Positions 1 through 54,997 of a stretch of 64,000 nucleotides of DNA are shown here, piece by piece. The DNA lies in assembly GCA_028699255.1 (NCBI GenBank), contig JAQVUX010000003.1, positions 146,654-210,653 of the forward strand, in the 5' to 3' direction. Within the stretch, counting starts at the first letter, position 1. Each line of letters starts with the position of its first letter. The notes under the pieces were generated by a model. That model worked only from the letters and a program-made list of their open reading frames with translations. It was not told the DNA's origin and ran no database searches. Source of the DNA: Candidatus Omnitrophota bacterium (GTDB lineage: Bacteria > Omnitrophota > Gorgyraeia > 2-01-FULL-45-10). The position numbers were made by a program, and so were the translations under genes.

Positions 1-541
<541 letters not shown>

Positions 542-547
542 CTGTCT

Positions 548-616
548 AACCGCGCAGGTTGCTTATCGGTTTTTGCCGTAAAGCAACCTGCGCGGTTTGC
601 AGGTGGTTTTTTTTAC
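548..616 (+). terminator. Rho-independent terminator after gap
   Basis: Inverted repeat aaccgcgcaggttgctt...aagcaacctgcgcggtt at 548-597, followed by a T8 run at 607-615. Confidence 0.6.
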
Positions 617-645
617 TTGGCAAAATGATACTAATATGGTATCAT
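617..645 (+). promoter_or_regulatory. Putative sigma70 promoter (TTGGCA-17-TATCAT) overlapping the perfect palindrome ATGATAC-N7-GTATCAT; candidate Rrf2 autoregulatory operator
   Basis: Seen directly: ttggca at 617-622, tatcat at 640-645, palindrome at 625-645. Sits immediately upstream of the Rrf2 regulator gene. Confidence 0.4.
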
Positions 646-671: not shown

Positions 672-1079
672 ATGAAGCTTTTTACGCGTAATACGGACTA
701 CGGGATAAGGGCGTTATGTTTTATCGCGAAAAAGGATGGCGATATAGTTTCAGTATCGGAACTCGTGAGAGCATTGAAGATCCCGAAGCCGTTTTTAAGA
801 AAGATACTCCAGTCTCTGACCGGGAAGGGTTTTGTAAGATCGTATAAAGGAGTTGGCGGCGGTTTCGCTCTTAAGATGTCCGCGAATAAACTATATATAA
901 TGAAGGTTGCCAAAGCGTTCCAGGGGCCGTTGAGCCTGACCGAGTGTTTGTTAAAAAAAGAGCTTTGCCCCAATCGGAGAATTTGCCCTTTAAAAGAAAG
1001 GATCGACAAGATCGAGAAATACATGATGTCGGAGCTGGATTCCATAACAATAGCGGAATTGATAAAAAGCCAGAAATGA
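672..1079 (+). CDS. Rrf2-family transcriptional regulator (IscR/NsrR/RsrR-like)
   Basis: MKLFTRNTDYGIRALCFIAKK...SVSELVRALKIPKPFLRKILQSL is a typical Rrf2 wHTH, with later Cys residues. An RBS aggaaaaaggag precedes the ATG at 672. The tabulated ORF start at 597 is probably too far upstream. Confidence 0.75.
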   Translation: MKLFTRNTDYGIRALCFIAKKDGDIVSVSELVRALKIPKPFLRKILQSLTGKGFVRSYKGVGGGFALKMSANKLYIMKVAKAFQGPLSLTECLLKKELCPNRRICPLKERIDKIEKYMMSELDSITIAELIKSQK

Positions 1080-1112
1080 GTGGAAGTATAATTAACGGAT
1101 GGGGTATAATAC

Positions 1113-1763
1113 ATGAGTGATATGCATAAAAAATTACTGCATATAATAGCGTCTCCACGAGGCGAAGATTCCAGAACGCTTAAGGTAAGCGGCGTCTTCC
1201 TCGATATTTTTTCCAAAAAACATCCTGCCTGCGCGATAGAAAGTATCAATCTATTCGACGAACCTCTACAGCCATTGACCATAAAGATGGTTAAGGGTAA
1301 ATACATGCTCCTCGGAGGCAAGGACATTGCCGAAGAGTTTAAGGACGCGTGGAAAATTATCGAACGTTATATCAGCCAATTCCTTTCGGCGGATGTAATC
1401 CTTTTAAGCGCTCCCATGTGGAACTTCAGCATACCGTACCAGTTAAAACACTACATCGATATCATCCTCCAGCCGCGATACCTTTTTCGGTATACAGCCA
1501 ATGGCGTGGAGGGGCTTGCGAAAAATAAAAAGATGATAGTTATTACAAGCCGCGGAGGAGATTATTCTTCGACGGGGCCGATGGCGAAATCAGACCATCA
1601 GATGCCATACCTGAAGACGGTCTTCGGATTCTGCGGCATTACGGATATGACTTTTATAAATGCCCAGCCGATGGATATGGATCCTGCGGCGGCGGCGCGC
1701 GCTCTCGAGGCGGCGAAAAAAGAGGCTGTCCAGGCGGCCAATGCAATAGGCGAAACGGTATAA
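1113..1763 (+). CDS. FMN-dependent NADH-azoreductase / flavodoxin-like fold NAD(P)H quinone reductase (AzoR/AcpD family)
   Basis: Flavodoxin_2-type motifs: [10 protein letters not shown] near the N-terminus and [22 protein letters not shown]. Confidence 0.7.
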
Positions 1764-1777
1764 AAAAGGAGGCGGAT

Positions 1778-1936
1778 ATGGATAAATACAAGTGCCTTGT
1801 GTGCGGTTACATATACGATCCCGCTAAGGGCGATCCGGATAACGGTGTAGCGGCGGGGACGAGTTTCGAAAAATTACCGGACGGCTGGGTCTGTCCGGAG
1901 TGCGGCGCTCCCAAAAGTGAGTTTGAAAAAATATAA
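1778..1936 (+). CDS. Rubredoxin (52 aa), missing from the ORF track because it is under 60 aa
   Basis: [52 protein letters not shown] carries both rubredoxin CxxCG knuckles. An RBS aaggagg lies 7 nt upstream. Confidence 0.85.
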
Positions 1937-1949
1937 CAAGGAGAAAAAA

Positions 1950-2138
1950 GTGACTGCAAAGATCGATGCGGATGTGTGTATAGGTTGCGGGTTGTGCGTC
2001 AGCACATGCCCGGAGGTTTATAAGATGCAGGATGATAAAGCGGTTGTGTACGTCGGAATAGTTCCGGGTGGGGCGGAAGAGAATTGCCAGAAGGCGTGCG
2101 ATGAATGCCCTGTAACGGCTATAACGGTAACAAAATAA
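1950..2138 (+). CDS. Small 4Fe-4S ferredoxin
   Basis: CIGCGLCVSTCP plus a second Cys cluster CQKACDECP. A GTG start at 1950 follows the RBS aaggag. The tabulated ATG at 1917 would overlap the rubredoxin gene. Confidence 0.7.
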   Translation: MTAKIDADVCIGCGLCVSTCPEVYKMQDDKAVVYVGIVPGGAEENCQKACDECPVTAITVTK

Positions 2139-2142
2139 GAAG

Positions 2143-3783
2143 GTGCATCGGGTGGAAGACTTCTCGATCCTTATCGGCGGCAAGGCCGGCTTCGGAATAG
2201 ATAAAGCCGGACTTATAATAGCGAATATATTGAACCGGCTCGGTTACCGGTTGTATATATACCGCGATTATCCTTCATTGATACGCGGCGGACACACTTT
2301 TTCCATAATAAGAGCCGCGCGCCGCAAAATATATTCGCATAAAGATAAGGTGGAGATACTCCTCGCTTTCAACCAGGAGACATTCGATCTGCACAAGAAC
2401 AGATTGACCGACAATGCCATGGTGATTTATGACGCCGGTGTAGTGAAAGTTGACGGTCTGGGTGGGGCGAACAAGATCGTGATGGTTCCCGCGGCGAATA
2501 TATTAAAGGAAGAGCTTGCCCCGGAGATAACGCGTAATTCATGCAGTATAGGGGCGTTGTGCAAGGCGGTGGATATGCCGTGGGATCTGCTCGATAAGGA
2601 ATTCAGGAATAGTTTCTCCTCGGAGGCGGATATTAACTTAAAGGTTGCCCGCCGGGGATACGACGCTGTCGAGAAGGTATACAGGATAGAGCCGACGGGG
2701 CAGGAGCCCCTTCCCGTATTCACCGGCAACGAAGCTATAGGGCTCGGCCTGGTCATGGGCGGACTCGACACCTACATCTCTTATCCGATGACGCCTACTT
2801 CGCCGATACTCCATTTCCTGGCGAGCCGCTCCGGAGAGTTTTCGCTTAAAGTGATCCATCCGGAGAGCGAGATCGCCGTGATATTGATGGCGCTCGGCGC
2901 CGCGTACTGCGGCGAGAAGACGGCGGTCGGGACCTCCGGCGGCGGATTTTGCCTGATGACGGAGGGAGTAAGCTTTTCGGCGATGGCGGAACTGCCGGTG
3001 GTGATAGTTCTGGGCCAGCGGCCCGGCCCATCGACGGGCCTGCCCACATACAGTTCGCAGACGGAACTGCATTTCGCGCTTAACGCGGGACAGGGAGAGT
3101 TCGCGCGCCTTGTTCTCGCGCCCGGTGACGCGGAGGAAGCGTATTATCTGGCGCAGGTCGCCTTGAAACTTGCGCGGAAGTATCGCATGCCGGCCATAAT
3201 ATTAAGCGATAAGAATATGGGGGAAGGGGTATATAGTTTTGACGCTGACTTATCGCCCGAGGTAAGGATAGATGACGATGTATCCTGGGACGGGAAAAAG
3301 CTCATGTTCGTCCCGGGAAAAGATAACGTTATAAAAGTGAATAGTTACGAACACGATGAGGCGGGGCTAACTATAGAAGACCCGGCCCTGACAGCTAAGA
3401 TGCAGGAACGGCGTTTGCAAAAAGGCAATCGCCTGGCGGAAGAGCTTGAGCAGTGCGAAATGGTAAAGACTTACGGTAACAAAGATTCGGATATCGCCGT
3501 CATATGCTGGGGCTCGAATAAAGGTGTGTGCGTAGAGGCCGCCGGGCGCATGGGGTTAAAAGTCATCCAGCCGCTCTATATGTCACCGTTCCCGGCCATG
3601 CAGATGGAGCGGGCGATGAAAGGCGTCAGGAAGCTTTTGGCCGTCGAGTCGAATGCGACCGCCCAGCTTGTAAAGCTGATGAATCTTCACGCTCTCGGCG
3701 TGGATAAAGAGATATTAAAATACGACGGAAGGCCTTTTAGCGTGGACGAGCTGGAAAGAAAACTTCGGGAGGCGATAGCGTGA
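2143..3783 (+). CDS. 2-oxoacid:ferredoxin oxidoreductase, fused gamma-alpha subunit (KorA/PorGA-like)
   Basis: The N-terminal gamma-type domain (GGKAGFGIDKAGLIIANIL...GGHTF) is followed by an alpha-subunit core of about 400 aa. It overlaps the beta-subunit gene by GTGA. Confidence 0.75.
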   Translation: MHRVEDFSILIGGKAGFGIDKAGLIIANILNRLGYRLYIYRDYPSLIRGGHTFSIIRAARRKIYSHKDKVEILLAFNQETFDLHKNRLTDNAMVIYDAGVVKVDGLGGANKIVMVPAANILKEELAPEITRNSCSIGALCKAVDMPWDLLDKEFRNSFSSEADINLKVARRGYDAVEKVYRIEPTGQEPLPVFTGNEAIGLGLVMGGLDTYISYPMTPTSPILHFLASRSGEFSLKVIHPESEIAVILMALGAAYCGEKTAVGTSGGGFCLMTEGVSFSAMAELPVVIVLGQRPGPSTGLPTYSSQTELHFALNAGQGEFARLVLAPGDAEEAYYLAQVALKLARKYRMPAIILSDKNMGEGVYSFDADLSPEVRIDDDVSWDGKKLMFVPGKDNVIKVNSYEHDEAGLTIEDPALTAKMQERRLQKGNRLAEELEQCEMVKTYGNKDSDIAVICWGSNKGVCVEAAGRMGLKVIQPLYMSPFPAMQMERAMKGVRKLLAVESNATAQLVKLMNLHALGVDKEILKYDGRPFSVDELERKLREAIA

Positions 3784-4625
3784 AAGGCCTTGATACGAAA
3801 GCCGTTAATACATGGTGCCTGGGATGCGGTAACTTCTCCATATTGAACGCGATGAAGTCCGTGCTCGCGTCTTTTGTCGACGAAGGACTGCCAGTAGAGA
3901 ATGTCGTGCTCGTCTCCGGCATCGGCTGTCATGCCAAGATAGTCGATTATGTCAACGTAAACAGTTTCTATTCACTGCATGGCCGCGTCATTCCGCCGGC
4001 CACAGGGATAAAGATAGCGAATCCCGCCCTCAAGGTCATAGGCCACTCCGGCGACGGAGACGCTTACGGTGAAGGGCTGGAGCACCTGATATTTGCCGCG
4101 AAGCGTAATGTGGACATGACGGTCATAATACACAATAACAGGGTGTACGGCCTGACCACAGGGCAATATACCCCGACTTCTCCATACGGATATAAGGGGC
4201 GTTCCACTCCATCGGGGGCTAAGGAGATGCCGATAAATCCGATGGATCTTCTTTTAGCGTCCGGGGCGACATTTTTGGCGCGAGGTACGTCGCACGGGAT
4301 CGAGCTTTTAAAGAAAATATTCAGAGAAGCGATATTGCACAAAGGTTTTTCGCTCGTTGATGTTCTGCAGGTTTGCGTTACATATTGCAACCTGTACGAA
4401 TATTACGATAAACGTGTTTATGAATTAAGCGGGCACAATCCGTATGATTACGCCTCGGCGGAGGCTAAGATACGGGAGTGGGATTATAATAAGGACGGCA
4501 AGATAGCGTTGGGCGTATTTTATAAAAAAGAAGCGCCGGTTTTTGAAGATAGTTTTAACGTTAAGAAAATGCCAATAGACGAAAGACGCCGCAAAGTAGA
4601 GGCGACGGTGAAAGGCAGACCATGA
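3780..4625 (+). CDS. 2-oxoacid:ferredoxin oxidoreductase beta subunit (TPP-binding)
   Basis: N-terminal TWCLGCGN motif and the TPP-binding GIGCH...GDGD pattern typical of KorB/PorB. GTG start. Confidence 0.8.
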   Translation: MKGLDTKAVNTWCLGCGNFSILNAMKSVLASFVDEGLPVENVVLVSGIGCHAKIVDYVNVNSFYSLHGRVIPPATGIKIANPALKVIGHSGDGDAYGEGLEHLIFAAKRNVDMTVIIHNNRVYGLTTGQYTPTSPYGYKGRSTPSGAKEMPINPMDLLLASGATFLARGTSHGIELLKKIFREAILHKGFSLVDVLQVCVTYCNLYEYYDKRVYELSGHNPYDYASAEAKIREWDYNKDGKIALGVFYKKEAPVFEDSFNVKKMPIDERRRKVEATVKGRP

Positions 4626-5149
4626 CGGATCCGAACGTTCTGCACAACTTAAGCTACGGAATGTATATCGTCTCATCTTATAATAGCGATAAGCTAAACG
4701 GCCAGATCGCGAATACGGTCTTCCAGATAACGAGCGAACCGGTTACGATAGCGGTAAGTATAAATAAGAAGAACCTGACGCATGAGCTTATAGAGACCAG
4801 CGGTGTTTTTACAGTATCTGTACTCGGCGAGGACGCGCCGCTCGAGTTTATAGGCAGATTCGGGTTCAGGACGGGACGGAAAGAGGATAAGTTCAGCGGC
4901 ATAAGTTTTAAAACACTCGAATCGGGTTGCCCCGTCGTGTTGGAGCATTCCATATGCTATGTCGCCGCAGAGGTTACCGGCAGGCTTGATTGTCTTACCC
5001 ACACGTTGTTTTTGGGAAAAATGACGGCGTCTGAAATGTTAAAACAGGCCAACCCGATGACATATGCTTATTATCATATGGTCAAACACGGCTCGACGCC
5101 CAGATCCGCGCCGACGTTTATTAAGGGCGAGACGATCGATAAAAAGTAA
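4622..5149 (+). CDS. Flavin reductase-like domain protein (FMN-binding split barrel)
   Basis: The layout YGMYIVSS...NTVFQITSEP..IAVSINKKN..T...IE.SGVFTVSVL matches the Flavin_Reduct family. It is often partnered with flavodiiron proteins or rubredoxin. Confidence 0.65.
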   Translation: MTDPNVLHNLSYGMYIVSSYNSDKLNGQIANTVFQITSEPVTIAVSINKKNLTHELIETSGVFTVSVLGEDAPLEFIGRFGFRTGRKEDKFSGISFKTLESGCPVVLEHSICYVAAEVTGRLDCLTHTLFLGKMTASEMLKQANPMTYAYYHMVKHGSTPRSAPTFIKGETIDKK

Positions 5150-5161
5150 CAGGAGGAAAAC

Positions 5162-6349
5162 GTGAAACCGCTTGAGATAAAGAAAGGCATATATTCCGTC
5201 GGAGTAGTTGACTGGAACATCAGAAATTTCCACGGGCACACGTACACGACGAAAAGAGGCACGACCTATAACGCCTACCTGATCGTTGATGAGAAGATTG
5301 CCCTGGTGGATACGGTACTCGGTTCATTCGCCGGGGAATTGATCGAGAATATAAAAGCTATAATTCCTCCGGAGAAGATAGATTACGTTATCGCGAACCA
5401 TGTCGAGAGGGACCATTCGAGCGCCATGCCGGCGCTTATGAAATTATGCCCGAAGGCGAAAGTTTACGGTACACAGAAATGCAAAGAAGGGTTGTACAAA
5501 AATTATTATGAGAATTGGGATTTTCAGGCGGTCAAAACCGGCGACAAATTAAAACTGGGCAAAAGGACGCTCACTTTTATCGAAGCGCCGATGATACATT
5601 GGCCGGACAGCATGTTTACATATTGCGCCGAGGAAGAACTTCTTATGTCGAATGACGCGTTCGGACAGCACCTGGCGTCCGGCGGGCGATTTGACGATGA
5701 GGTCGATGAGTGCGCGTTGATGGATGAGGCGGCAAAGTATTACGGGAATATCCTCTGGCCGTTGAGCTCGCTAATTTTAAGAAAAATAGAGGATATTGTG
5801 AAGATGGGTGTCCCGATAAAGATGATAGCTCCAAGCCACGGTGTTATATGGCGCCGCAGTCCGGGAAAGATAATCGATTCGTATGTCCGCTGGGCGAAGA
5901 ATACGACTAAGCCAAAAGTGGTTATCGTCTACGAGACGATGTGGGGCGCTACCGAAAAGATGGCGCGGAAGATAGCGGAGGCGCTCATAGATTCCGGCGT
6001 TGAGATTAAGCTTTTCGACATAGCGGTCTCCGACGGTACGGAAGTCATAAAGGAGATGCTTGATGCCAGAGGTTTCATCATAGGCTCGTCCACGCACGAT
6101 AACGATATGCTCACGACGATCGCGGGATTTCTCGAATTCCTGAAGGGATTGAAGCCTAAAGGCAGGATCGCGGCCGCATTCGGTTCGTACGGCTGGTCCG
6201 GAGGAGCCGTAGCTTCTATCGAAAATCTGTTAAAAGAGGGAGGAATGGAAATAGCGCAACCCGGCGTATCGGCGAAATTCATGCCGGATGAAAATGAGAT
6301 AAAAACCGCATACCAATTTGGCAAAGATTTCGCGGGCAGGATAAAGTGA
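5162..6349 (+). CDS. Flavodiiron protein (rubredoxin:oxygen oxidoreductase / NO reductase, FprA/ROO)
   Basis: N-terminal metallo-beta-lactamase-like di-iron domain (H.ERDH, YNAYLI) plus a C-terminal flavodoxin domain (VVIVYETMWGATEKMA). GTG start after RBS aggagg. Confidence 0.85.
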   Translation: MKPLEIKKGIYSVGVVDWNIRNFHGHTYTTKRGTTYNAYLIVDEKIALVDTVLGSFAGELIENIKAIIPPEKIDYVIANHVERDHSSAMPALMKLCPKAKVYGTQKCKEGLYKNYYENWDFQAVKTGDKLKLGKRTLTFIEAPMIHWPDSMFTYCAEEELLMSNDAFGQHLASGGRFDDEVDECALMDEAAKYYGNILWPLSSLILRKIEDIVKMGVPIKMIAPSHGVIWRRSPGKIIDSYVRWAKNTTKPKVVIVYETMWGATEKMARKIAEALIDSGVEIKLFDIAVSDGTEVIKEMLDARGFIIGSSTHDNDMLTTIAGFLEFLKGLKPKGRIAAAFGSYGWSGGAVASIENLLKEGGMEIAQPGVSAKFMPDENEIKTAYQFGKDFAGRIK

Positions 6350-6386
6350 CGTGGTATAATAACACAAAAGAAGGAGCTGTGACAAT

Positions 6387-6782
6387 ATGGCTCAGTTAAA
6401 CGAAATATTCCAGTCGGCTGATTGGAAAAAAGAGAAACACATCCCGGTTATCGACGCGCCCGCCGATGTAAAAAAGGGCGAGTTTTTTCGCATATCGGTA
6501 TGTGTGGGCAAGGAGATAGCGCATCCTAACACGACCGCTCACCACATAATGTGGATAGCGGTATTCTTTTTGCCGGACGGTGAAAAGTTCCCGTACCAGA
6601 TAGGCAGGGCTGAGTTTGACGCGCATGGCGCGTCTACACTCGGCGCGGATACGAGCACTGTATTTACCCATTCCGAGGCTGTATTGTCCATGAAGACGGA
6701 CAAGCCCGGAACCATTATGGCTACCTCGTATTGCAATATACACGGCCTATGGCAGGATTCGAAGAAAATAGGGGTGAAGTAA
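6387..6782 (+). CDS. Superoxide reductase (desulfoferrodoxin/neelaredoxin family, 1Fe class)
   Basis: EKHIPVI motif and the His/Cys ligand pattern HPNTTAHHIMWI...C.IHG characteristic of SOR. Confidence 0.8.
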   Translation: MAQLNEIFQSADWKKEKHIPVIDAPADVKKGEFFRISVCVGKEIAHPNTTAHHIMWIAVFFLPDGEKFPYQIGRAEFDAHGASTLGADTSTVFTHSEAVLSMKTDKPGTIMATSYCNIHGLWQDSKKIGVK

Positions 6783-6784
6783 TT

Positions 6785-7432
6785 TTGCAAATTAAAGTAA
6801 ACACCATCTTCTTTGACATCGACGGCACTCTCATTGACGCAAGGCAGGATATCGTTAACGCGATGAACCACGCCCTCCGGCAAATGGGCTTTCCCGAGAA
6901 ATCCTTCGGCAGTATAGTCTCTTATGTCGGCACCGGGGTAAAAGACCTGGTTGCCAGGAGCCTCGATTCGGACGATGCCGGACTAATCGATAAGGCGGCC
7001 GGGATGTACAGCGATTATTATATGGCGCATCCCGCGGATAAGGCGTATCTCTACCCACACGCCAAAGAGATACTTGAATATTTCAAAAATAAACGAAAGA
7101 TCATTCTTACCAATAGATACGCGAGATTTGCCGACGCCGTGCTTAAGGCGCTCGGCATACGTGATTACTTCGAGGATATTATCGGCGGCGATGATGAGAA
7201 TTGCATTAAACCATCCGCATGCGTACTGGATCCGTATGTCGCGCGGTTGGGCATAGCCAAGCCAGAGGCGCTCATAGTAGGCGACATGGCTATCGATGTC
7301 GAAACCGGCAAGAACTCGGGGATCAAGACCTGCTGGATACGCCACGGACTGGGTAAGGCCGCGGACGTCGAACCGCTTAAGCCGGATTTCACGATAGACG
7401 ATCTCGCGGAGTTGAAAAACATAATAATATAG
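6785..7432 (+). CDS. HAD-superfamily hydrolase (phosphoglycolate phosphatase-like)
   Basis: FFDIDGTLID motif I and a downstream GDM.IDVETGKN motif. The start is uncertain: either TTG at 6785 just after the SOR stop, or the tabulated ATG at 6731, which would overlap SOR by 52 nt. Confidence 0.65.
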   Translation: MQIKVNTIFFDIDGTLIDARQDIVNAMNHALRQMGFPEKSFGSIVSYVGTGVKDLVARSLDSDDAGLIDKAAGMYSDYYMAHPADKAYLYPHAKEILEYFKNKRKIILTNRYARFADAVLKALGIRDYFEDIIGGDDENCIKPSACVLDPYVARLGIAKPEALIVGDMAIDVETGKNSGIKTCWIRHGLGKAADVEPLKPDFTIDDLAELKNIII

Positions 7433-7444
7433 GAGGTAACCGGT

Positions 7445-7681
7445 ATGAAAAAAGTAACTGTTTACAGCACGCCTACCTGCCCGTTCTGCATACGGGCAAA
7501 ACAGTACCTTAAAGATAATAATATTCCATTCGACGACATAGATGTCTCCGAGGATGAGAAGAAAGCCCAGGAGATGATAAAGCGCTCGGGCCAGATGGGC
7601 GTTCCGGTTATCGAGATAGACGGCGCGATAATCGTAGGATTTGATAAAGATAAGATAAAGGATGCTTTGGATATAAAATGA
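7445..7681 (+). CDS. Glutaredoxin-family thiol-disulfide protein (NrdH/Grx-like)
   Basis: 78 aa with a TPTCPFC active site and a GVPVIEIDG.II motif. Confidence 0.8.
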   Translation: MKKVTVYSTPTCPFCIRAKQYLKDNNIPFDDIDVSEDEKKAQEMIKRSGQMGVPVIEIDGAIIVGFDKDKIKDALDIK

Positions 7682-8583
7682 TCTACGATCTGATCATTAT
7701 AGGCGCGGGCCCTGCCGGTATTACCGCGGCGGTATACGCCGCCCGTAAGCGGATGAGTTTTATCGTCATCACCGGCGATGTCGGCGGCCAGGCGGCCTGG
7801 TCGGGCGATATCGAAAATTATACGGGTTACCAGTTCATTACAGGCCCGGACCTTGTCGGCAAGTTCGAAGAGCATATGCGTAAATACGGCATTACCGTCA
7901 GGGAAAACGAGCCTGCAGTTGATATTGTCAGGGCGGGAGGCGTGATACGCGTGAAGACCGCGAAGGCCCAGTACGAGGCGAAGGCGGTTATAATAGCGTC
8001 GGGCAAAGTTTCCAAAGAGCTCGGTGTCCCGGGTGAGAAGGAATTCAAGAACAGGGGGCTTACCTACTGCGCCACCTGCGACGGCCCGCTATTCGCCGGC
8101 AAGGATGTGGCGGTCATAGGCGGCGGCAACTCCGCGCTGGATGCCGCGCTTCAGCTGATGAAGATAGCCGCCCGGGTCTATGTCGTGAACGCTACCTCCG
8201 CGCTGGGCGGTGACGCGGTGATGCGCGAAAAAGTGGAAGCGAGCGATAAGGTTACGGTGCGAAACGACGCGCAGGTGACGGCCGTATCGGGCGATAAGTT
8301 CGTAACCGGCATAAAGATAAAGCGCGGCGGCAAGATCGAGGATATCCCGGTGGGCGGGGTATTCGTGGAGATAGGGCTTCTGCCCAATTCCGAGTTCGCC
8401 CGCACGATAGAGAAGAACGCGCGCGGCGAGATAAAGATTAATTGCAGAAATGAGACCAATATTCCCGGGGTGTTCGCGGCAGGGGATGTTACCGATGTTC
8501 CCGAAAAACAGATAGTCATAGCGGCAGGAGAAGGGTCTAAGGCCGCCCTCGCCGCTTTCAAATATATAAACCAGAGCAAATAA
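7678..8583 (+). CDS. trxB: Thioredoxin-disulfide reductase (low-Mr TrxR type)
   Basis: FAD site IIGAGPAG, redox-active CATCDG, a second GGGNSA dinucleotide site and GVFAAGDV. Confidence 0.8.
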   Translation: MIYDLIIIGAGPAGITAAVYAARKRMSFIVITGDVGGQAAWSGDIENYTGYQFITGPDLVGKFEEHMRKYGITVRENEPAVDIVRAGGVIRVKTAKAQYEAKAVIIASGKVSKELGVPGEKEFKNRGLTYCATCDGPLFAGKDVAVIGGGNSALDAALQLMKIAARVYVVNATSALGGDAVMREKVEASDKVTVRNDAQVTAVSGDKFVTGIKIKRGGKIEDIPVGGVFVEIGLLPNSEFARTIEKNARGEIKINCRNETNIPGVFAAGDVTDVPEKQIVIAAGEGSKAALAAFKYINQSK

Positions 8584-8588
8584 CATCT

Positions 8589-9236
8589 ATGGATAACTCC
8601 ATCCGCGCCCTCAAAGAAGCGCATAAAAGTCTCCGTCCACAAATAAAGAAGCGTCTCGCCGAATTCCGGCATATCCATAAAGCAAGCGACGAAGAGATAT
8701 TCCCCGAACTCTGCTACTGCATCCTTACCGCCAATGCCAACGCCGTTAAATGCGACCTGGCTATAAGTGAACTTAAGAAACGCGGTCTTTTGCTTAAAGG
8801 CACGGCCGCCCGTATACGCCCGCACATAAAGGGGCGGGCGAGGTTTCATAATAAGAAAGCCGAGTACATAATAGGCGCCAGGAAGATTTTTTCCGGCGGC
8901 GGCGCTATCGATATTAAACGGCACATAAAACCTAAAGATGTTTTTAAAGTACGTGAATGGCTGGTCGAGAATATAAAGGGCTTCGGATATAAGGAGGCGA
9001 GCCATTTTTTGCGCAATATCGGCTTAGGGCGGGACATAGCCATATTGGACAGGCATATTTTAGCCAATCTTAAAAAATACGGGGTGATCGCCCGCGTGCC
9101 GGATTCCGTCGGCGCAAGGAGTGTCTATCTTGAGATAGAAGACAAGATGAGGGCCTTCTCAAAGAAGGTCGGGATACCCCTTGAGCACATGGATTTACTC
9201 TTCTGGGCCATGCAGACAGGATTTGTATTTAAATAA
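8589..9236 (+). CDS. ogg: N-glycosylase/DNA lyase, 8-oxoguanine DNA glycosylase (archaeal-type Ogg/HhH-GPD)
   Basis: ELCYCILTANANAV...G.GYKEASHFLRNIG..DIAILDRH matches the Ogg2-type HhH-GPD pattern. Confidence 0.65.
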   Translation: MDNSIRALKEAHKSLRPQIKKRLAEFRHIHKASDEEIFPELCYCILTANANAVKCDLAISELKKRGLLLKGTAARIRPHIKGRARFHNKKAEYIIGARKIFSGGGAIDIKRHIKPKDVFKVREWLVENIKGFGYKEASHFLRNIGLGRDIAILDRHILANLKKYGVIARVPDSVGARSVYLEIEDKMRAFSKKVGIPLEHMDLLFWAMQTGFVFK

Positions 9237-9388: not shown

Positions 9389-9417
9389 TTGACAAAACCT
9401 GCCGACGCTACTATAAT
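9389..9417 (+). promoter_or_regulatory. Perfect consensus sigma70 promoter TTGACA-17-TATAAT upstream of pgk
   Basis: Seen directly: ttgaca at 9389-9394, a 17 nt spacer, tataat at 9412-9417, about 27 nt before the pgk RBS. Confidence 0.6.
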
Positions 9418-9444: not shown

Positions 9445-10662
9445 ATGGCAAAGAAGACGATAAAAGACGTGGATTTAAAGGGCAAGAGGGCTCTTATCCG
9501 GGTCGATTTTAACGTTCCCCTCGATGACAATCTGAATATAACCGACGATATAAGGATACGGTCAGCCGTTCCTACTATAAAATACGCGTTGGATAAAGGC
9601 GCAAAAGTCATTCTCATGAGCCATCTCGGCAGGCCGGATGGAAAGCCGGACGAGGCTCTGCGGTTGTCTCCTGCGGCAAAACGTCTGCGGGAACTTCTTG
9701 GTAGGCCCGTTACCGCTCTTAAAGATTGCGTAGGCAGTGATGTGGAAAAAGCGGTTTCGGACATGAAGCCCGGCGATGTTATATTGCTCGAGAATTTGAG
9801 GTTCCACGCCGAAGAAGAGAAGAACGACCCCGCCTTCGCTAAAAAGCTCGCGTCCTTAGGCGACGTATTTATCAACGACGCGTTCGGCACAGCCCACAGG
9901 GCGCATGCGTCGACGGAAGGAGTTACGCACTACCTGCCGTCTGTTGCCGGGTTCCTATTGGAGAAAGAGATACAGTATCTCGGCAATACCGTTGCCGATC
10001 CGAAGAGGCCGTTCGTCGCGATACTCGGCGGAGCGAAGGTCAAAGACAAGATAAAGGTTATAGATAATCTGCTCGATAAGGTCGACGCGCTTCTTATAGG
10101 CGGCGGCATGGCGTACACATTCCTGAAAGCGCAGGGCAAGACTATAGGTTCTTCCAAGCTGGATAAAGACGGCCTCGAGACGGCTAAGAACGCGCTCGAT
10201 AAAGCCACTAAAAAGAAGATACCGATATTGCTTCCTGTCGACAACGTCATCGCGGATAAATTTGACGCGAATGCCGAAACACAGATCGTCGGTGAGAATA
10301 TACCGGACGGATGGATGGGGCTCGACATAGGCCCGAAGACGATAAAGCTTTTTGAAGACAAGCTGAAAACCGCCAAAACCATTCTATGGAACGGGCCGGT
10401 CGGCGTATTCGAAATGGATAAGTTTGCCAAAGGTACCGAAGAAGTCGCGAAGTTCATAGCGGGCCTTAAAGGCGCTATTTCTATTATAGGCGGCGGAGAC
10501 ACGGCCGCGGCCATGGCTAAGTTCAAAGTTGACGGCAAAATGACACACATATCGACGGGCGGCGGCGCTTCGCTGGAATATCTCGAAGGGCGCGGCCTTC
10601 CGGGGATAGACGCGCTGATGGATAAAGGCTGTTCCTGCTGTAGTTGCGGAGGGGCGAAATAA
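9445..10662 (+). CDS. pgk: Phosphoglycerate kinase with an unusual Cys-rich C-terminal tail ([11 protein letters not shown])
   Basis: The full PGK fold is recognisable: [38 protein letters not shown]. Confidence 0.95.
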
Positions 10663-10664
10663 TA

Positions 10665-11420
10665 ATGAGACGGATAATAATCGCGGGTAACTGGAAGATG
10701 AATAAGAACATAGCGGAATCGATCGATCTTGCCAATTCCGTAAAGAGGCTATTATACGATACCGAAGGCATAGAGATAGTGGTATGTCCGCCATTCGTAT
10801 CCTTGAGCGATGTCAATGAGGTCGTCATGGAATCGAATATCGGCCTCGGAGCGCAGGATGTTTACTGGGAGAAGGAAGGCGCGTTCACGGGCGAGGTATC
10901 CTGCGGAATGCTGAAGAGCGCCGCCTGCGGATACTGCATAGTGGGGCATTCGGAGAGAAGGCAGTTTTTCGGCGAGACGAATACTATGGTAAATAAAAAG
11001 GCAAAAGCTCTTCTGGCCGCGGGCATTAAACCTATCGTTTGTGTCGGGGAGAAGCTCGAAGATAGAAAAGCCAATAAAACATTCAATGTAATAAAGGATC
11101 ATATTGCCGGTTCGCTTGCCGGATTAACGAAAGAGGACATGGAGAGCGTAATCATAGCTTACGAGCCGGTCTGGGCGATAGGAACCGGTGTTAACGCTAC
11201 CAAGGAGCAGGCCCAGGAAGTACATAAATATATACGCGGCCTCATAAAAGAGATGTTCGATGATTCCGTCGCGAAATCCGTGAGGATACAATACGGCGGT
11301 AGTGTGAAGCCGGAGAACGCGAAGGAACTTATGTCGCAGGAAGATGTCGACGGTGCGCTTGTAGGCGGGGCGAGCCTGAAGGCGGAGACATTCGCCCAGA
11401 TAGTGCGTAACTGTTTATAA
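10665..11420 (+). CDS. tpiA: Triosephosphate isomerase
   Basis: AGNWKMN, IVGHSERR, AYEPVWAIGTG. The ATG at 10665 sits directly after the pgk stop (taataATG). The tabulated start at 10644 is unlikely. Confidence 0.95.
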   Translation: MRRIIIAGNWKMNKNIAESIDLANSVKRLLYDTEGIEIVVCPPFVSLSDVNEVVMESNIGLGAQDVYWEKEGAFTGEVSCGMLKSAACGYCIVGHSERRQFFGETNTMVNKKAKALLAAGIKPIVCVGEKLEDRKANKTFNVIKDHIAGSLAGLTKEDMESVIIAYEPVWAIGTGVNATKEQAQEVHKYIRGLIKEMFDDSVAKSVRIQYGGSVKPENAKELMSQEDVDGALVGGASLKAETFAQIVRNCL

Positions 11421-11447
11421 AGCGAATAACTAAAGAGCGAGGTTGAT

Positions 11448-11768
11448 ATGTTATACGGGTTGGTCATTGCGATACACGTGATAGCGTCGTTGGTGCTGAT
11501 AGCCGTTATATTACTGCAGGCGGGCCGCGGCGGTGGGTTAAGCGAAACATTCGGCGGTAGCTCGACACAGACGCTTTTCGGCACGAAGACGTCGGTTTTC
11601 TTGGCGCGCGCTACGGCGGCCTCGGCGATAATTTATATAATTACATGCCTTGCGCTGGCAGTCATGACGAGCCACCAGAGCAAATCTCTGGTGTCGCAGG
11701 GTACCACGATGCCTATGCCTGTCCAGGGCGGCGCAAATCCTTTAGCCGACGAGCCGATGGATTTCTAA
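11448..11768 (+). CDS. secG: Preprotein translocase subunit SecG
   Basis: LLQ.GRGGGLS...FGG motif between two TM helices, in the conserved position after tpiA. Confidence 0.85.
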   Translation: MLYGLVIAIHVIASLVLIAVILLQAGRGGGLSETFGGSSTQTLFGTKTSVFLARATAASAIIYIITCLALAVMTSHQSKSLVSQGTTMPMPVQGGANPLADEPMDF

Positions 11769-11785
11769 GAAATGATGAGATAAAT

Positions 11786-13390
11786 ATGTTCGTTGTACGA
11801 AAGATAAAAATACCGCTGATTATCCTGGCGGTATTTTTTTTGTTCTCATCCGGTTCGTCGGGCGCTTCCGATGACCCGCATGGCGATGCCATAGTCGTAA
11901 GTTCTATAAGCGATCCCAGAACGCTTATTCCGATACTTGCTTCGGATTCGGCCTCAAGCGATATCTGTGGCATGATATTTAACGGCCTTATCAAATACGA
12001 TAAAACCGTTCGCATAACAGGCGATCTCGCCGAGAATTGGGAAATCTTAGACGGCGGCGCTGTCATAGTATTCCATCTGAAAAAAAATGTGCGCTGGCAT
12101 GACGGCGCGCCATTTACCGCAAAAGACGTACTATTCACGTACGAAAAATTGGTTGATCCCGTAGTAAAGACGCCGTACAGCGGTGATTTCGACAGGATAA
12201 AATCGGTAGAAATCCCGGACGAGTATACGGTTAAAATTATTTACAAGGAGCCGTTCGCGCCGGCGCTTTCCAGCTGGGGCATGTGGATAATGCCGGAACA
12301 TTTACTGAAAGGCGAAGATCTGAATAAGTCGTCTTTTTCGCGTAATCCCATAGGTACCGGGCCGTATAAGTTCAAATCGTGGAGGACGGGAGAGAAGATA
12401 GAGCTCGTCTCGAATCGCGACTATTTCGAAGGAAGGCCTTATATCGATAGATACATATACCGCATAATACCCGACGACGCCACGATATTTCTCGAACTCC
12501 AGACGCAGGGCGTGGATATGGCCGGGCTATCGCCTCTGCAATATGCGCGGCAGACGGGTAACAAATTCTTCCGCGGGCATTATAATAAATTCAGATATCC
12601 AGGTTTCGGTTATACCTATATGGCTTACAATCTCGCCGATCCGAGATTCGGCGACATCAGGGTGCGGCAGGCTATAAACTACGCCGTCGATAAAGACGCG
12701 ATGGTGAAGGCGATATTCTTCGGCCTCGCCGAGGTTACGACCGGGCCTTTTATGAAGGATTCGTGGGCGTACAATAAGGATGTGAAGCCAGCTCCGTACA
12801 ACATCGCGAAGGCAAGGGCGCTTTTGCGCGAAGCGGGTTGGGAGGATACCGATAAGGACGGGTGGGTCGAAAAGGAGAGAAGGGTTTTCGAGTTCACGAT
12901 CCTCGTAAATCAGGGAAACGGTGAGCGGCAACGCGCCGCCGAGATGATACAGAATGACCTTAAAGCCGTCGGGATAAGGATGAAGATACGCGTCGTCGAG
13001 TGGAGCACGCTCATCGGCGAATTCCTGGGCAAGAAGCGTTTTGAGGCGGTGCTCATGGGATGGTTCCTCGGCCGCGACCCGGATAATTACGATATATGGC
13101 ATTCGTCAAAGACTCGAGAGGGGGAGTTTAATTTTATCGGGTATAAAAACGCGGAGGTCGACCGCCTGCTTGCGGAAGGCCGGCGCACGTTCGACGAAGC
13201 AAGGCGCGCGGCGATATACCGCCGGGTGCATGAGATCATCTACGCGGATCAGCCGTACATGTTCCTCTATTCGGCCGATATGTTGCCGATAGTGAATTCG
13301 CGCTTCCGTAACGTCGAATCCTCGCCCATCGGCATCGGGTACAATTTTATAAAGTGGTACGTGCCGAAAAGTGAGCAACGATACAGGTAA
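11786..13390 (+). CDS. ABC transporter substrate-binding protein, family 5 (oligopeptide/dipeptide/nickel, OppA/DppA-like)
   Basis: A signal peptide starts at the ATG at 11786 (MFVVRKIKIPLIILAVFF). Family 5 SBP fold motifs follow (NPIGTGPYKF, W.SNRDYF). The tabulated start at 11645 overlaps secG. Confidence 0.8.
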   Translation: MFVVRKIKIPLIILAVFFLFSSGSSGASDDPHGDAIVVSSISDPRTLIPILASDSASSDICGMIFNGLIKYDKTVRITGDLAENWEILDGGAVIVFHLKKNVRWHDGAPFTAKDVLFTYEKLVDPVVKTPYSGDFDRIKSVEIPDEYTVKIIYKEPFAPALSSWGMWIMPEHLLKGEDLNKSSFSRNPIGTGPYKFKSWRTGEKIELVSNRDYFEGRPYIDRYIYRIIPDDATIFLELQTQGVDMAGLSPLQYARQTGNKFFRGHYNKFRYPGFGYTYMAYNLADPRFGDIRVRQAINYAVDKDAMVKAIFFGLAEVTTGPFMKDSWAYNKDVKPAPYNIAKARALLREAGWEDTDKDGWVEKERRVFEFTILVNQGNGERQRAAEMIQNDLKAVGIRMKIRVVEWSTLIGEFLGKKRFEAVLMGWFLGRDPDNYDIWHSSKTREGEFNFIGYKNAEVDRLLAEGRRTFDEARRAAIYRRVHEIIYADQPYMFLYSADMLPIVNSRFRNVESSPIGIGYNFIKWYVPKSEQRYR

Positions 13391-54921: not shown

Positions 54922-54997
54922 GGGGCAGTAGCTCAGCTGGGAGAGCACCACGTTCGCAACGTGGGGGTCGTGGGTTCGAATCCCATCTGCTCCACCA
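54922..54997 (+). tRNA. tRNA-Ala (anticodon CGC)
   Basis: Folded by hand: acceptor GGGGCAG/CUGCUCC with the G3:U70 Ala identity pair, D-arm GCUC-AGCUGGGA-GAGC, anticodon stem CCACG/CGUGG, loop UUCGCAA, T-arm GUGGG-UUCGAAU-CCCAU, and an encoded CCA. Confidence 0.9.

Follow-up and report, generated by a model that had tools for sequence, protein, structure and literature searches.

Operons for oxidative stress that bring together rubredoxin, superoxide reductase (SOR) and flavodiiron protein (FDP) are known from anaerobes, such as rub-rbo-hrb-fprA of Moorella thermoacetica and rbo-rub-roo of Desulfovibrio, and in Clostridium acetobutylicum and Clostridioides difficile one repressor, PerR, controls rubredoxin, SOR, FDP and rubrerythrin-type defences. 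In the rubredoxin locus of Clostridium pasteurianum, after which the YruB family is named, an AhpF-like thioredoxin reductase (TrxR) and a glutaredoxin-like protein (the Cp34/Cp9 pair) reduce peroxiredoxin. As known from NsrR, the [4Fe-4S] clusters of Rrf2-family regulators are in general reactive toward both O2 and NO. The Omnitrophota, a widespread and mostly anaerobic group, have not been cultured, and what is known of their physiology comes from genomes alone. Here we describe a block of 13 genes, headed by the gene of an Rrf2-family regulator, which lies between gap and pgk in 64,000 nucleotides of DNA from Candidatus Omnitrophota bacterium (contig JAQVUX010000003.1, positions 146,654 to 210,653; this whole stretch is called the window and is numbered from its first letter). 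With moderate confidence, we read this region as a native, anciently inserted operon of one Omnitrophota clade for defence and repair against oxygen and reactive oxygen species (ROS) and, probably, NO. Literature searches returned no description of the block, of the Rrf2 subfamily or of its operator in Omnitrophota. In another phylum, a Lachnospiraceae Fe-S Rrf2 protein (UniRef50_C0FN14), encoded beside FDP (the BOOR system), rubrerythrin, ribonucleotide reductase (RNR) and thioredoxin, has been proposed to sense ROS and reactive nitrogen species (RNS) and to derepress its neighbours (bioRxiv 2026, PMC13404960).

As in the Moorella and Desulfovibrio operons, rubredoxin, SOR and a class-A FDP are located together with an electron input of the flavin-reductase type. 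Unlike those operons, the block is larger (13 genes) and Rrf2-headed, and it additionally holds a 2-oxoacid:ferredoxin oxidoreductase (OFOR) with a ferredoxin, an AhpF-like/YruB thiol system, an Ogg2 glycosylase and a HAD phosphatase; its flavin reductase is free-standing, whereas that of Moorella Hrb is fused to a rubredoxin domain, and its SOR is a 1Fe protein as opposed to the 2Fe desulfoferrodoxin. The single-repressor model put forward below for the same defence set in a strict anaerobe is reminiscent of the PerR regulons, but the repressor would be an Fe-S Rrf2 protein in place of the Fur-like PerR, and the genes that are dispersed under PerR here form one block in a glycolytic cluster. 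The YruB-family gene, translationally coupled to the gene of a 301-aa reductase resembling the C-terminal half of AhpF within a rubredoxin-containing locus, presumably has its counterpart in the Cp34/Cp9 pair; unlike that system, the window block has no peroxiredoxin, and relatives have an AhpC-Pterin_4a fusion. By analogy, the nearest mechanistic model for the regulator is NsrR (S. coelicolor 5n07; an E. coli regulon including hcp, the gene of hybrid cluster protein), with which it shares the Rrf2 fold, the four ligands, an operator overlapping the promoter and, in relatives, the link to hcp. However, the block operator, ATGATAC-N7-GTATCAT, differs from that of NsrR, and the predicted targets are mostly oxygen/ROS enzymes and not flavohaemoglobin. 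The C0FN14 protein, likened here by its description, is also an NsrR-like Rrf2 with Asp8 and three cysteines beside FDP and rubrerythrin in obligate anaerobes, and RNR is likewise found in the block of one of our relatives; the Omnitrophota clusters differ in phylum and add OFOR/ferredoxin, SOR, Ogg, HAD and a defined conserved operator.

The features of the block and its flanks are given below by position and strand.

23-541, plus strand: 3′ end of gap (GAPDH C-terminal domain; Pfam Gp_dh_C, E = 6.8e-65), upstream flank
548-612, plus strand: intrinsic-terminator-like hairpin and T8 run between gap and the block (terminator scan)
617-645, plus strand: sigma-70-type block promoter, TTGGCA, 17-nt spacer, TGgTATCAT (promoter scan, 10/12 with TG)
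624-646, no strand assigned: palindromic predicted operator, AATGATAC-N7-GTATCATT (motif search)
672-1079, plus strand: Rrf2-family regulator with NsrR-type ligands D9, C92, C99 and C105 (Pfam Rrf2)
1104-1109, plus strand: TATAAT within the 33 nt between rrf2 and azoR, which may be a remnant or act weakly as an internal promoter
1113-1763, plus strand: Flavodoxin_2-fold FMN-dependent NAD(P)H oxidoreductase, AzoR/quinone-reductase-like (Pfam Flavodoxin_2, E = 1.2e-46)
1778-1936, plus strand: rubredoxin, 52 aa (Pfam Rubredoxin, E = 2.7e-25)
1917-2138, plus strand: single-cluster 4Fe-4S ferredoxin (Pfam Fer4_13, Fer4_15)
2143-3783, plus strand: OFOR alpha, a gamma-alpha fusion (Pfam POR and POR_N)
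3780-4625, plus strand: OFOR beta (Pfam TPP_enzyme_C and PFO_beta_C)
4622-5149, plus strand: NAD(P)H:flavin reductase of the Archaeoglobus ferric-reductase type (Pfam Flavin_Reduct)
5162-6349, plus strand: class-A FDP, O2 and/or NO reductase (Pfam ODP/Lactamase_B and Flavodoxin_1)
6387-6782, plus strand: 1Fe SOR, neelaredoxin type (Pfam Desulfoferrodox)
6749-7432, plus strand: HAD-IA hydrolase, phosphoglycolate-phosphatase-like (Pfam HAD_2)
7445-7681, plus strand: YruB-family glutaredoxin-like protein (TIGR02196)
7678-8583, plus strand: low-molecular-weight TrxR-like flavoprotein disulfide reductase, nearest to the AhpF C-terminal half
8589-9236, plus strand: Ogg2-type 8-oxoguanine DNA glycosylase/lyase (Pfam Ogg-HhH, E = 1e-55)
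9389-9417, plus strand: pgk-tpiA-secG promoter, TTGACA-17-TATAAT (promoter scan, 12/12)
9445-11768, plus strand: pgk, tpiA and secG, downstream flank (Pfam PGK, TIM, SecG)

The listing of open reading frames together with the Pfam and NCBIfam scans bore out the tightly packed, same-strand arrangement that had been claimed in the original prediction, with 13 plus-strand genes between the 3′ end of gap (23-541) and pgk (9445-10662). No spacer within the block exceeds 37 nt, and a 4-nt overlap occurs in four gene pairs. Downstream, pgk is followed by tpiA, secG and an SBP_bac_5 gene, the order pgk-tpiA-secG being identical in block-free and block-carrying relatives. The Rfam scan gave no RNA family in the block region; its sole match in the window is a tRNA at 54922-54994, unrelated to the block.

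The protein at the head of the block belongs to the Rrf2 family (PF02082, 103.5 bits against a cut-off of 30; TIGR00738, 102.7 bits against 73.3), and its scores with the curated NCBIfam models for IscR, NsrR, RirA, SufR and CymR are far under their cut-offs, that with the NsrR equivalog NF008240 being 70 bits against 182. In the alignment with S. coelicolor NsrR (5n07, 34.9 bits), D9, C92, C99 and C105 fall on the [4Fe-4S] ligands D8, C93, C99 and C105, and the same four residues are invariant in 120 of 120 Rrf2 homologues. The family models and the ligand alignment thus agree with the earlier claim that a candidate redox regulator heads the block. Judged from its ligand set, this candidate sensor would carry a cluster of the [4Fe-4S] type and respond to O2, NO or both.

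The PGK sequences nearest to that of the window come from Omnitrophota MAGs, and the Rrf2 protein is identical to an NCBI entry from a Candidatus Omnitrophica MAG. For the comparison with relatives, loci were anchored on PGK with one genome per species, and the window proteins were mapped onto them; further carriers were obtained from the contexts of Rrf2 homologues and from a metagenome scan anchored on the TrxR-like gene (all loci bear L numbers). A palindrome upstream of rrf2 had also been pointed out, and it was found at 624-646, where it stands alone in the 64-kb window even when three mismatches are allowed (0.16 expected by chance). Its core is 7-N7-7, widened to 9-7-9 in the window; the left half lies in the promoter spacer and the right half is the extended -10. 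The consensus promoter/operator upstream of the orthologues reads TTGACA-A(A)-ATGATAC-N7-GTATCAT-T, and the operator was present, within 27-251 nt, upstream of every one of the 15 rrf2 orthologues that are 48.9% or more identical and whose upstream sequence was available. When the palindrome was searched at up to two mismatches in the 2.12 Mb of fetched loci, 18 sites were obtained in 18 independent loci, every one at the head of an Rrf2/ROS or RNS stress cluster and with the same promoter architecture, mostly with a perfect TTGACA; no further copies were seen in these loci, inside any block or elsewhere. In L138 the operator stands directly before rubredoxin, a ferritin-like protein, 2Fe-SOR and two rubrerythrins, and in L127 directly before an Fe-S protein and an HD protein, with SOR among the genes downstream; in both, no rrf2 lies between. 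The left half-site is conserved in a spacer that is free of promoter sequence constraint; no conservation is seen in the adjoining terminator sequences. These comparisons make a good case for a conserved operator that is predicted to govern ROS/RNS defence genes, and it would do so elsewhere than at rrf2 because in L138 and L127 it directly heads stress genes. From its position over the promoter, repression is predicted.

Some further observations were made on rrf2 genes and their neighbours. The rrf2 matches that lie 3′ of trxB in other loci were rejected as orthologues; they are a distant second paralogue, 25-30% identical and without the operator. This second paralogue follows immediately after a Grx/TrxR-like pair in Omnitrophota stress clusters (L103, L104, L124, L130, L142, L149, L158, L162 and L165), and in L103, L104, L124, L142 and L149 it has a different promoter motif, ATACTTGACAA, the ATGATAC palindrome being present in none of the copies. 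In L083, L084, L085, L102 and L152 the rrf2 start codon falls about 6 nt past the -10, implying a leaderless mRNA; in the window, rrf2 has a leader of 26 nt that includes an AAAGGAG ribosome-binding site. In most relatives the gene directly after rrf2 specifies a protein with a ferredoxin domain that matches Pfam AF_0155 (e.g. L083 10412-11505, with equivalents in L082, L084, L086 and L088), usually followed by a small protein without a family and then by Hcp, which looks like a conserved Hcp partner set.

The enzymes are unremarkable representatives of families already known, and several of the names first given to them had to be loosened. The AzoR-like protein reaches only the Flavodoxin_2 fold, its score with the NCBIfam azoreductase subfamily NF010075 (128.9 bits) being under the cut-off of 188. 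The rubredoxin is 87-92% identical in relatives, in which the ferredoxin is called as 61-62 aa starting past the rubredoxin stop; the true ferredoxin start is probably downstream of 1917. Both OFOR subunits clear their generic models (alpha, TIGR03710, 501 bits over 482.75; beta, TIGR02177, 284 bits over 261.9), and with POR and POR_N in one 546-aa protein, a beta subunit and no delta gene they are of the two-subunit Sulfolobus/Magnetococcus type, the closest solved structures being Sulfolobus StOFOR (5b48, also 5b46) and Magnetococcus OGOR (6n2n). The 2-oxoglutarate-specific models fail (NF007206, 142 bits against 579; NF007207, 162 bits against 364), and the label 'KOR' is not established because only generic OFOR models clear their cut-offs. 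The flavin reductase has the Archaeoglobus ferric reductase 1i0r as its top solved match (E = 1.1e-49).

The FDP, of 395 aa, has ODP/Lactamase_B at residues 36-227 and Flavodoxin_1 at 255-386, as expected for class A, and aligns end to end with Moorella FprA (top solved match 1ycf, E = 2e-140), a structure deposited as a nitric oxide reductase; the next matches are E. coli NorV and D. gigas ROO, and the closest NCBIfam models, named 'anaerobic nitric oxide reductase flavorubredoxin', remain under cut-off. The earlier assignment as a flavodiiron protein therefore holds as far as class A is concerned; the label of rubredoxin:O2 oxidoreductase is a possible one, and the protein may, as judged from its relatives, reduce NO besides O2. 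The SOR is of the 1Fe class (TIGR00332, 97.1 bits over 61.9), with 41.3 bits against 146.9 for the 2Fe dfx_rbo model and no Desulfoferrod_N match in the Pfam scan. The HAD gene call agrees with Logan contig L081, and the gene is kept within the block in most relatives; the phosphoglycolate phosphatase equivalogs fail (NF009695, 152.9 bits against 225; TIGR01449, 112.6 against 180) and only HAD-IA subfamily models pass. Its role could lie in the disposal of 2-phosphoglycolate from oxidatively broken DNA.

The YruB-type protein (TIGR02196, 102.1 bits over 88.55) overlaps the TrxR-like gene by 4 nt. The 301-aa product of the latter finds AhpF residues 213-518 as its top solved match (4o5q/1hyu, 235 bits), and its scores with the NCBIfam AhpF model (310 bits) and TRX_reduct TIGR01292 (279 bits, cut-off 343) are both under cut-off; it has a CATC active site, NATSALG in place of the HRRxxxR NADPH motif, and no N-terminal AhpF domain. 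With such features the name 'TrxB' could not be retained, the nearest relative being the C-terminal half of AhpF. The Ogg protein passes NF002305 (210.8 bits over 183), and its closest solved relatives are MjaOgg (3fhf, 3knt) and 3n0u (E = 2e-35 to 5e-29). No peroxidase or other H2O2 scavenger was found in the block copy, and no Hcp anywhere in the 64-kb window, whereas the blocks of relatives hold rubrerythrin, an AhpC fusion (AhpC-Pterin_4a), DJ-1, the Fe-S protein and Hcp; to call the block a complete oxygen-survival regulon, as had been done, was an overclaim. Inside the blocks of L083 (12949-13800) and L084, this unusual fusion joins a peroxiredoxin (AhpC-TSA/Redoxin) to a pterin-4a-carbinolamine dehydratase.

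The history of the locus was followed through the junction between gap and pgk. Among 70 informative pgk loci across phyla, 33 have gap within 400 nt upstream of pgk, including those of Omnitrophota L003, L007, L037 and L069; the description of the two genes as normally contiguous is true of these loci and of most Omnitrophota outgroups. Block-free junctions with a gap-pgk distance of 6-23 nt were found in outgroups and in one near relative (L001, L003, L007, L037 and L069), the near relative being L001, with PGK 82% identical and gap and pgk 6 nt apart. The idea that the block was inserted into an ancestral gap-pgk junction is consequently upheld by these block-free versions, whose absence would have spoken against it. 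The block itself occupies the junction in L002, L082-L085, L090, L091, L099, L101, L102, L145 and L151. It lies 3′ of gap in L082-L085 and L102; in L090, L091, L099, L101, L145 and L151 it is followed by pgk-tpiA-secG-SBP5, and in L002 (PGK 85%) by a response regulator and a CHASE/PAS/GAF histidine kinase before pgk. Contig L081 carries the 3′ half of the block and pgk-tpiA-secG at 100% identity to the window. In neighbour-joining trees of PGK and of PGK+TpiA+SBP5, the carriers and L001 fell in one clade, with the block-free outgroups outside.

Composition across the block, which the original prediction had suggested examining, was that of native DNA. The GC content is 0.500 against 0.506 +/- 0.021 in the rest of the window, GC3 is alike, and codon frequencies correlate with r = 0.98. 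Block proteins of relatives are 59-92% identical to those of the window and flanking genes 65-93%; gap is 89-93% identical in the carriers L082-L085 and 81% in the block-free L001. Neither direct nor inverted repeats were found flanking the block, and there is no integrase or other recombinase among its 13 genes, while the window's one tRNA is at 54922, so the marks of a mobile island are lacking. Because of this native composition, the lack of mobile marks and a divergence matching the flanks, the block is an old, vertically inherited insertion common to one clade and not a recent island. More distant Omnitrophota have Rrf2-headed clusters at unrelated loci (L086, L087, L088, L108, L156 and L164), which suggests that the gap|pgk junction received the block from another place in the genome.

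Both flanks of the insertion appear rewired. After gap lies a hairpin (inverted repeat I1, 22-nt arms, -43.9 kcal/mol, z = -9.3 on folding) with its T-run, and relatives have unrelated hairpin and T-run sequences at the same place; the hairpin is predicted to insulate gap from the block. Upstream of pgk, the perfect consensus promoter that had been noted at 9389-9417 was confirmed, but the view that pgk had kept it from an ancestral state was not. A perfect TTGACA-17-TATAAT is found shortly upstream of pgk in all eight carriers examined, and no such promoter stands before pgk in the block-free L001, L003 and L007, in which pgk directly follows gap (6-23 nt) and hence has none. Since the promoter is present in all carriers and absent from the block-free genomes, it was gained with the insertion.

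From above data we propose, as a reasonably probable model, a single 13-gene operon repressed by Rrf2. In its favour are the tight spacing throughout, the absence of a terminator after rrf2, and the one significant promoter with its operator; co-transcription and control of all 13 genes by one operator are suggested by the spacing. Under anoxia, a holo-[4Fe-4S] Rrf2 dimer would sit on the operator and, because the operator overlaps the spacer and -10, would block RNA polymerase. O2 or NO would damage the cluster and the repressor would leave, whereupon rrf2 would be transcribed together with the 12 tightly coupled genes downstream. The two-subunit OFOR would then oxidise a 2-oxoacid and reduce ferredoxin, whereas NAD(P)H would feed the flavin reductase and the AzoR-like reductase and, through them, rubredoxin. 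Rubredoxin would in turn supply FDP, for the reduction of O2 to H2O or of NO to N2O, and 1Fe-SOR, for that of superoxide to H2O2. Disulfides, or a peroxiredoxin encoded elsewhere, would be reduced by the AhpF-like reductase and the YruB protein, and Ogg2 with the phosphoglycolate-phosphatase-like HAD would handle oxidised DNA and its products. The window copy would be a reduced form of a larger ancestral block from which the Fe-S protein/Hcp module, the AhpC fusion and rubrerythrin were lost, and loss of the Fe-S protein/Hcp module would have placed rrf2 directly against the ROS module.

A number of observations weigh against this account of the region. Co-transcription is a proposal made from gene spacing, and after ogg there is no clear terminator but a weak hairpin folding no better than shuffles (z = +0.4), so that read-through into pgk is possible; moreover, TGGTATAAT (repeat D18) lies 26 nt before sor. 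The Rrf2 score far below the NsrR equivalog cut-off means that cluster type and signal depend on the ligands, and at the positions proposed as markers of FDP selectivity (E. coli NorV numbering; Lys52/Tyr262 for O2, Asp52/Ser262 for NO) the protein has Leu and Trp, and Moorella FprA Tyr and Trp, matching neither type. The place of L001 within the carrier clade is weakly supported (bootstrap 6-39%), and L001 may have been block-free from the start or have lost the block secondarily. In L082-L085, hcp is separated from the ROS genes by a weak hairpin with a T-run and by a second promoter-like region, in which the palindrome is lacking. L091, the sister locus of the window (bootstrap 96.5), has its block at the same junction of gap and pgk; there the ROS module persists, but rrf2 and the operator are missing, and the one promoter-like element 5′ of its azoR corresponds in the alignment to the window's TATAAT at 1104-1109. 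The last observations would fit an arrangement in two units, in which the operator controls only rrf2, ancestrally an NsrR-hcp-like nitrosative module of rrf2, Fe-S protein and hcp, and azoR to ogg are driven by internal promoters, under another regulator or constitutively, their adjacency being a by-product of the Hcp-module deletion. Such an arrangement agrees also with the absence of a second operator copy inside any block and with a conserved 21-codon micro-ORF, MRGIIRYMLRPIAHCKEGCSI, which has its own Shine-Dalgarno directly after hcp in L082 (~12594-12659), L083, L084 and L085. However, only 33 nt separate rrf2 from azoR, with no terminator, and the TATAAT there lacks an acceptable -35 and is not among the promoters that the scan predicted; the operator heads rubredoxin, 2Fe-SOR and rubrerythrins in L138 and an Fe-S protein with SOR further downstream in L127, and short versions of the cluster have rrf2, Fe-S protein, hcp, sor, rub, fdp, grx, trxB in this order and closely spaced. 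We therefore regard two separate units as unlikely, while granting them an appreciable chance. If the block were instead primarily a system against NO stress, Rrf2 would be an NO-sensing NsrR analogue, FDP an NO reductase and the oxygen genes passengers. The NsrR-type Asp and three Cys ligands, the genes of Fe-S protein and Hcp right after rrf2 in most relatives, the best solved relatives of FDP (Moorella FprA, deposited as nitric oxide reductase, and E. coli NorV) and one source that calls a homologue a 'nitric oxide-sensitive repressor' all accord with it. Yet SOR, Ogg and the rubrerythrin, AhpC and DJ-1 of relatives act on oxygen-derived species, hcp is lost altogether from the window copy, and neither the 70-bit NsrR score nor the FDP marker residues point to NO, while [4Fe-4S] Rrf2 clusters generally react with both gases; a primary role in NO stress is quite improbable to us.

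The two remaining explanations concern the origin of the parts. An IscR orthologue mainly controlling Fe-S assembly elsewhere, with its position here incidental, would likewise be an Rrf2 family member with three C-terminal cysteines, but the scores with the IscR models are only 53.2 bits for TIGR02010 (cut-off 207.55) and 28.4 bits for NF008110 (cut-off 275), the fourth ligand is the N-terminal Asp of NsrR type, and no His follows C105 (CPLKER). Besides, none of the eight rrf2 contexts inspected has isc or suf neighbours, and in the loci searched the operator is confined to ROS/RNS clusters. IscR orthology, on which the original prediction would have foundered, was rejected on the equivalog scores and the ligand alignment, and we give it next to no credence. 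Recent acquisition of the block as a horizontally transferred island could explain why a conserved operon is interrupted and why unrelated cargo occurs at the same junction in L002, L008 and L010. Against it stand the GC, GC3 and codon usage shared with the rest of the window, the absence of flanking repeats, integrase or tRNA, the presence of the block in many relatives with divergence like that of the flanking housekeeping genes, and the occurrence of the Rrf2 subfamily and operator across Omnitrophota at other loci. Native composition and the lack of flanking repeats led us to discard recent transfer, which keeps a very slight chance, in favour of the old insertion.

What is new in this locus is the combination of an Rrf2 subfamily having a sharply conserved operator, an unusually broad cargo that spans electron supply, O2 and superoxide reduction, thiol reduction and DNA repair, and a placement inside gap-pgk with compensatory terminator and promoter; the job as such is already known from the rubredoxin/SOR/FDP operons of anaerobes and the clostridial PerR regulons. 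The locus illustrates how a large insertion can be accommodated in an essential operon: gap has been closed off by a terminator, and pgk has acquired a consensus promoter in every carrier. As a tentative extension, to which we give somewhat less than even credence, the Rrf2 subfamily might be a phylum-wide [4Fe-4S] sensor of O2 and NO and the master repressor of oxidative and nitrosative stress in Omnitrophota, in the role of PerR, OxyR or HcpR; deletion of the Hcp module would then have fused this sensor to the ROS module and given a 13-gene operon that rewired gap-pgk-tpiA. If true, this would be a new functional branch of Fe-S Rrf2 sensors, parallel to the proposal for gut Clostridia (PMC13404960). 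The sensor-operator pair with its compact, conserved targets offers a testable handle on how Omnitrophota survive pulses of O2 or NO.

Several minor observations concern the same loci. The sequence upstream of azoR in L091 aligns with the end of the window rrf2, which suggests that rrf2 was deleted there, and between azoR and rubredoxin this locus has a B12-dependent ribonucleotide reductase (NrdJ; L091 1-4300). The micro-ORF after hcp differs between loci mostly by synonymous changes and is absent from the window. Other cargo was met at the gap|pgk junction, namely a PAS histidine kinase, a response regulator and glycogen synthase in L010 (6012-9663), a SPOUT methyltransferase, DUF423, a photolyase, an SRPBCC protein and an epimerase in L008 (6285-9915), and the genes after the block in L002 (6218-9861), and the junction looks like a recurrent insertion site. 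Finally, PGK of the window ends in a cysteine-rich C-terminal tail of the kind found with 10-14 extra residues (10627-10662), which also occurs, in variants such as GGCCCCEGNRK and GCCCSGCGR, in five relatives (L091, L101, L090, L002 and L099). It is absent in L151, L145, L001, L003, L007, L004, L010 and L037 and so marks a subclade of block carriers; the tail may be metal-binding or redox-sensitive and, if Rrf2 were indeed a master repressor, could belong to the same redox adaptation.

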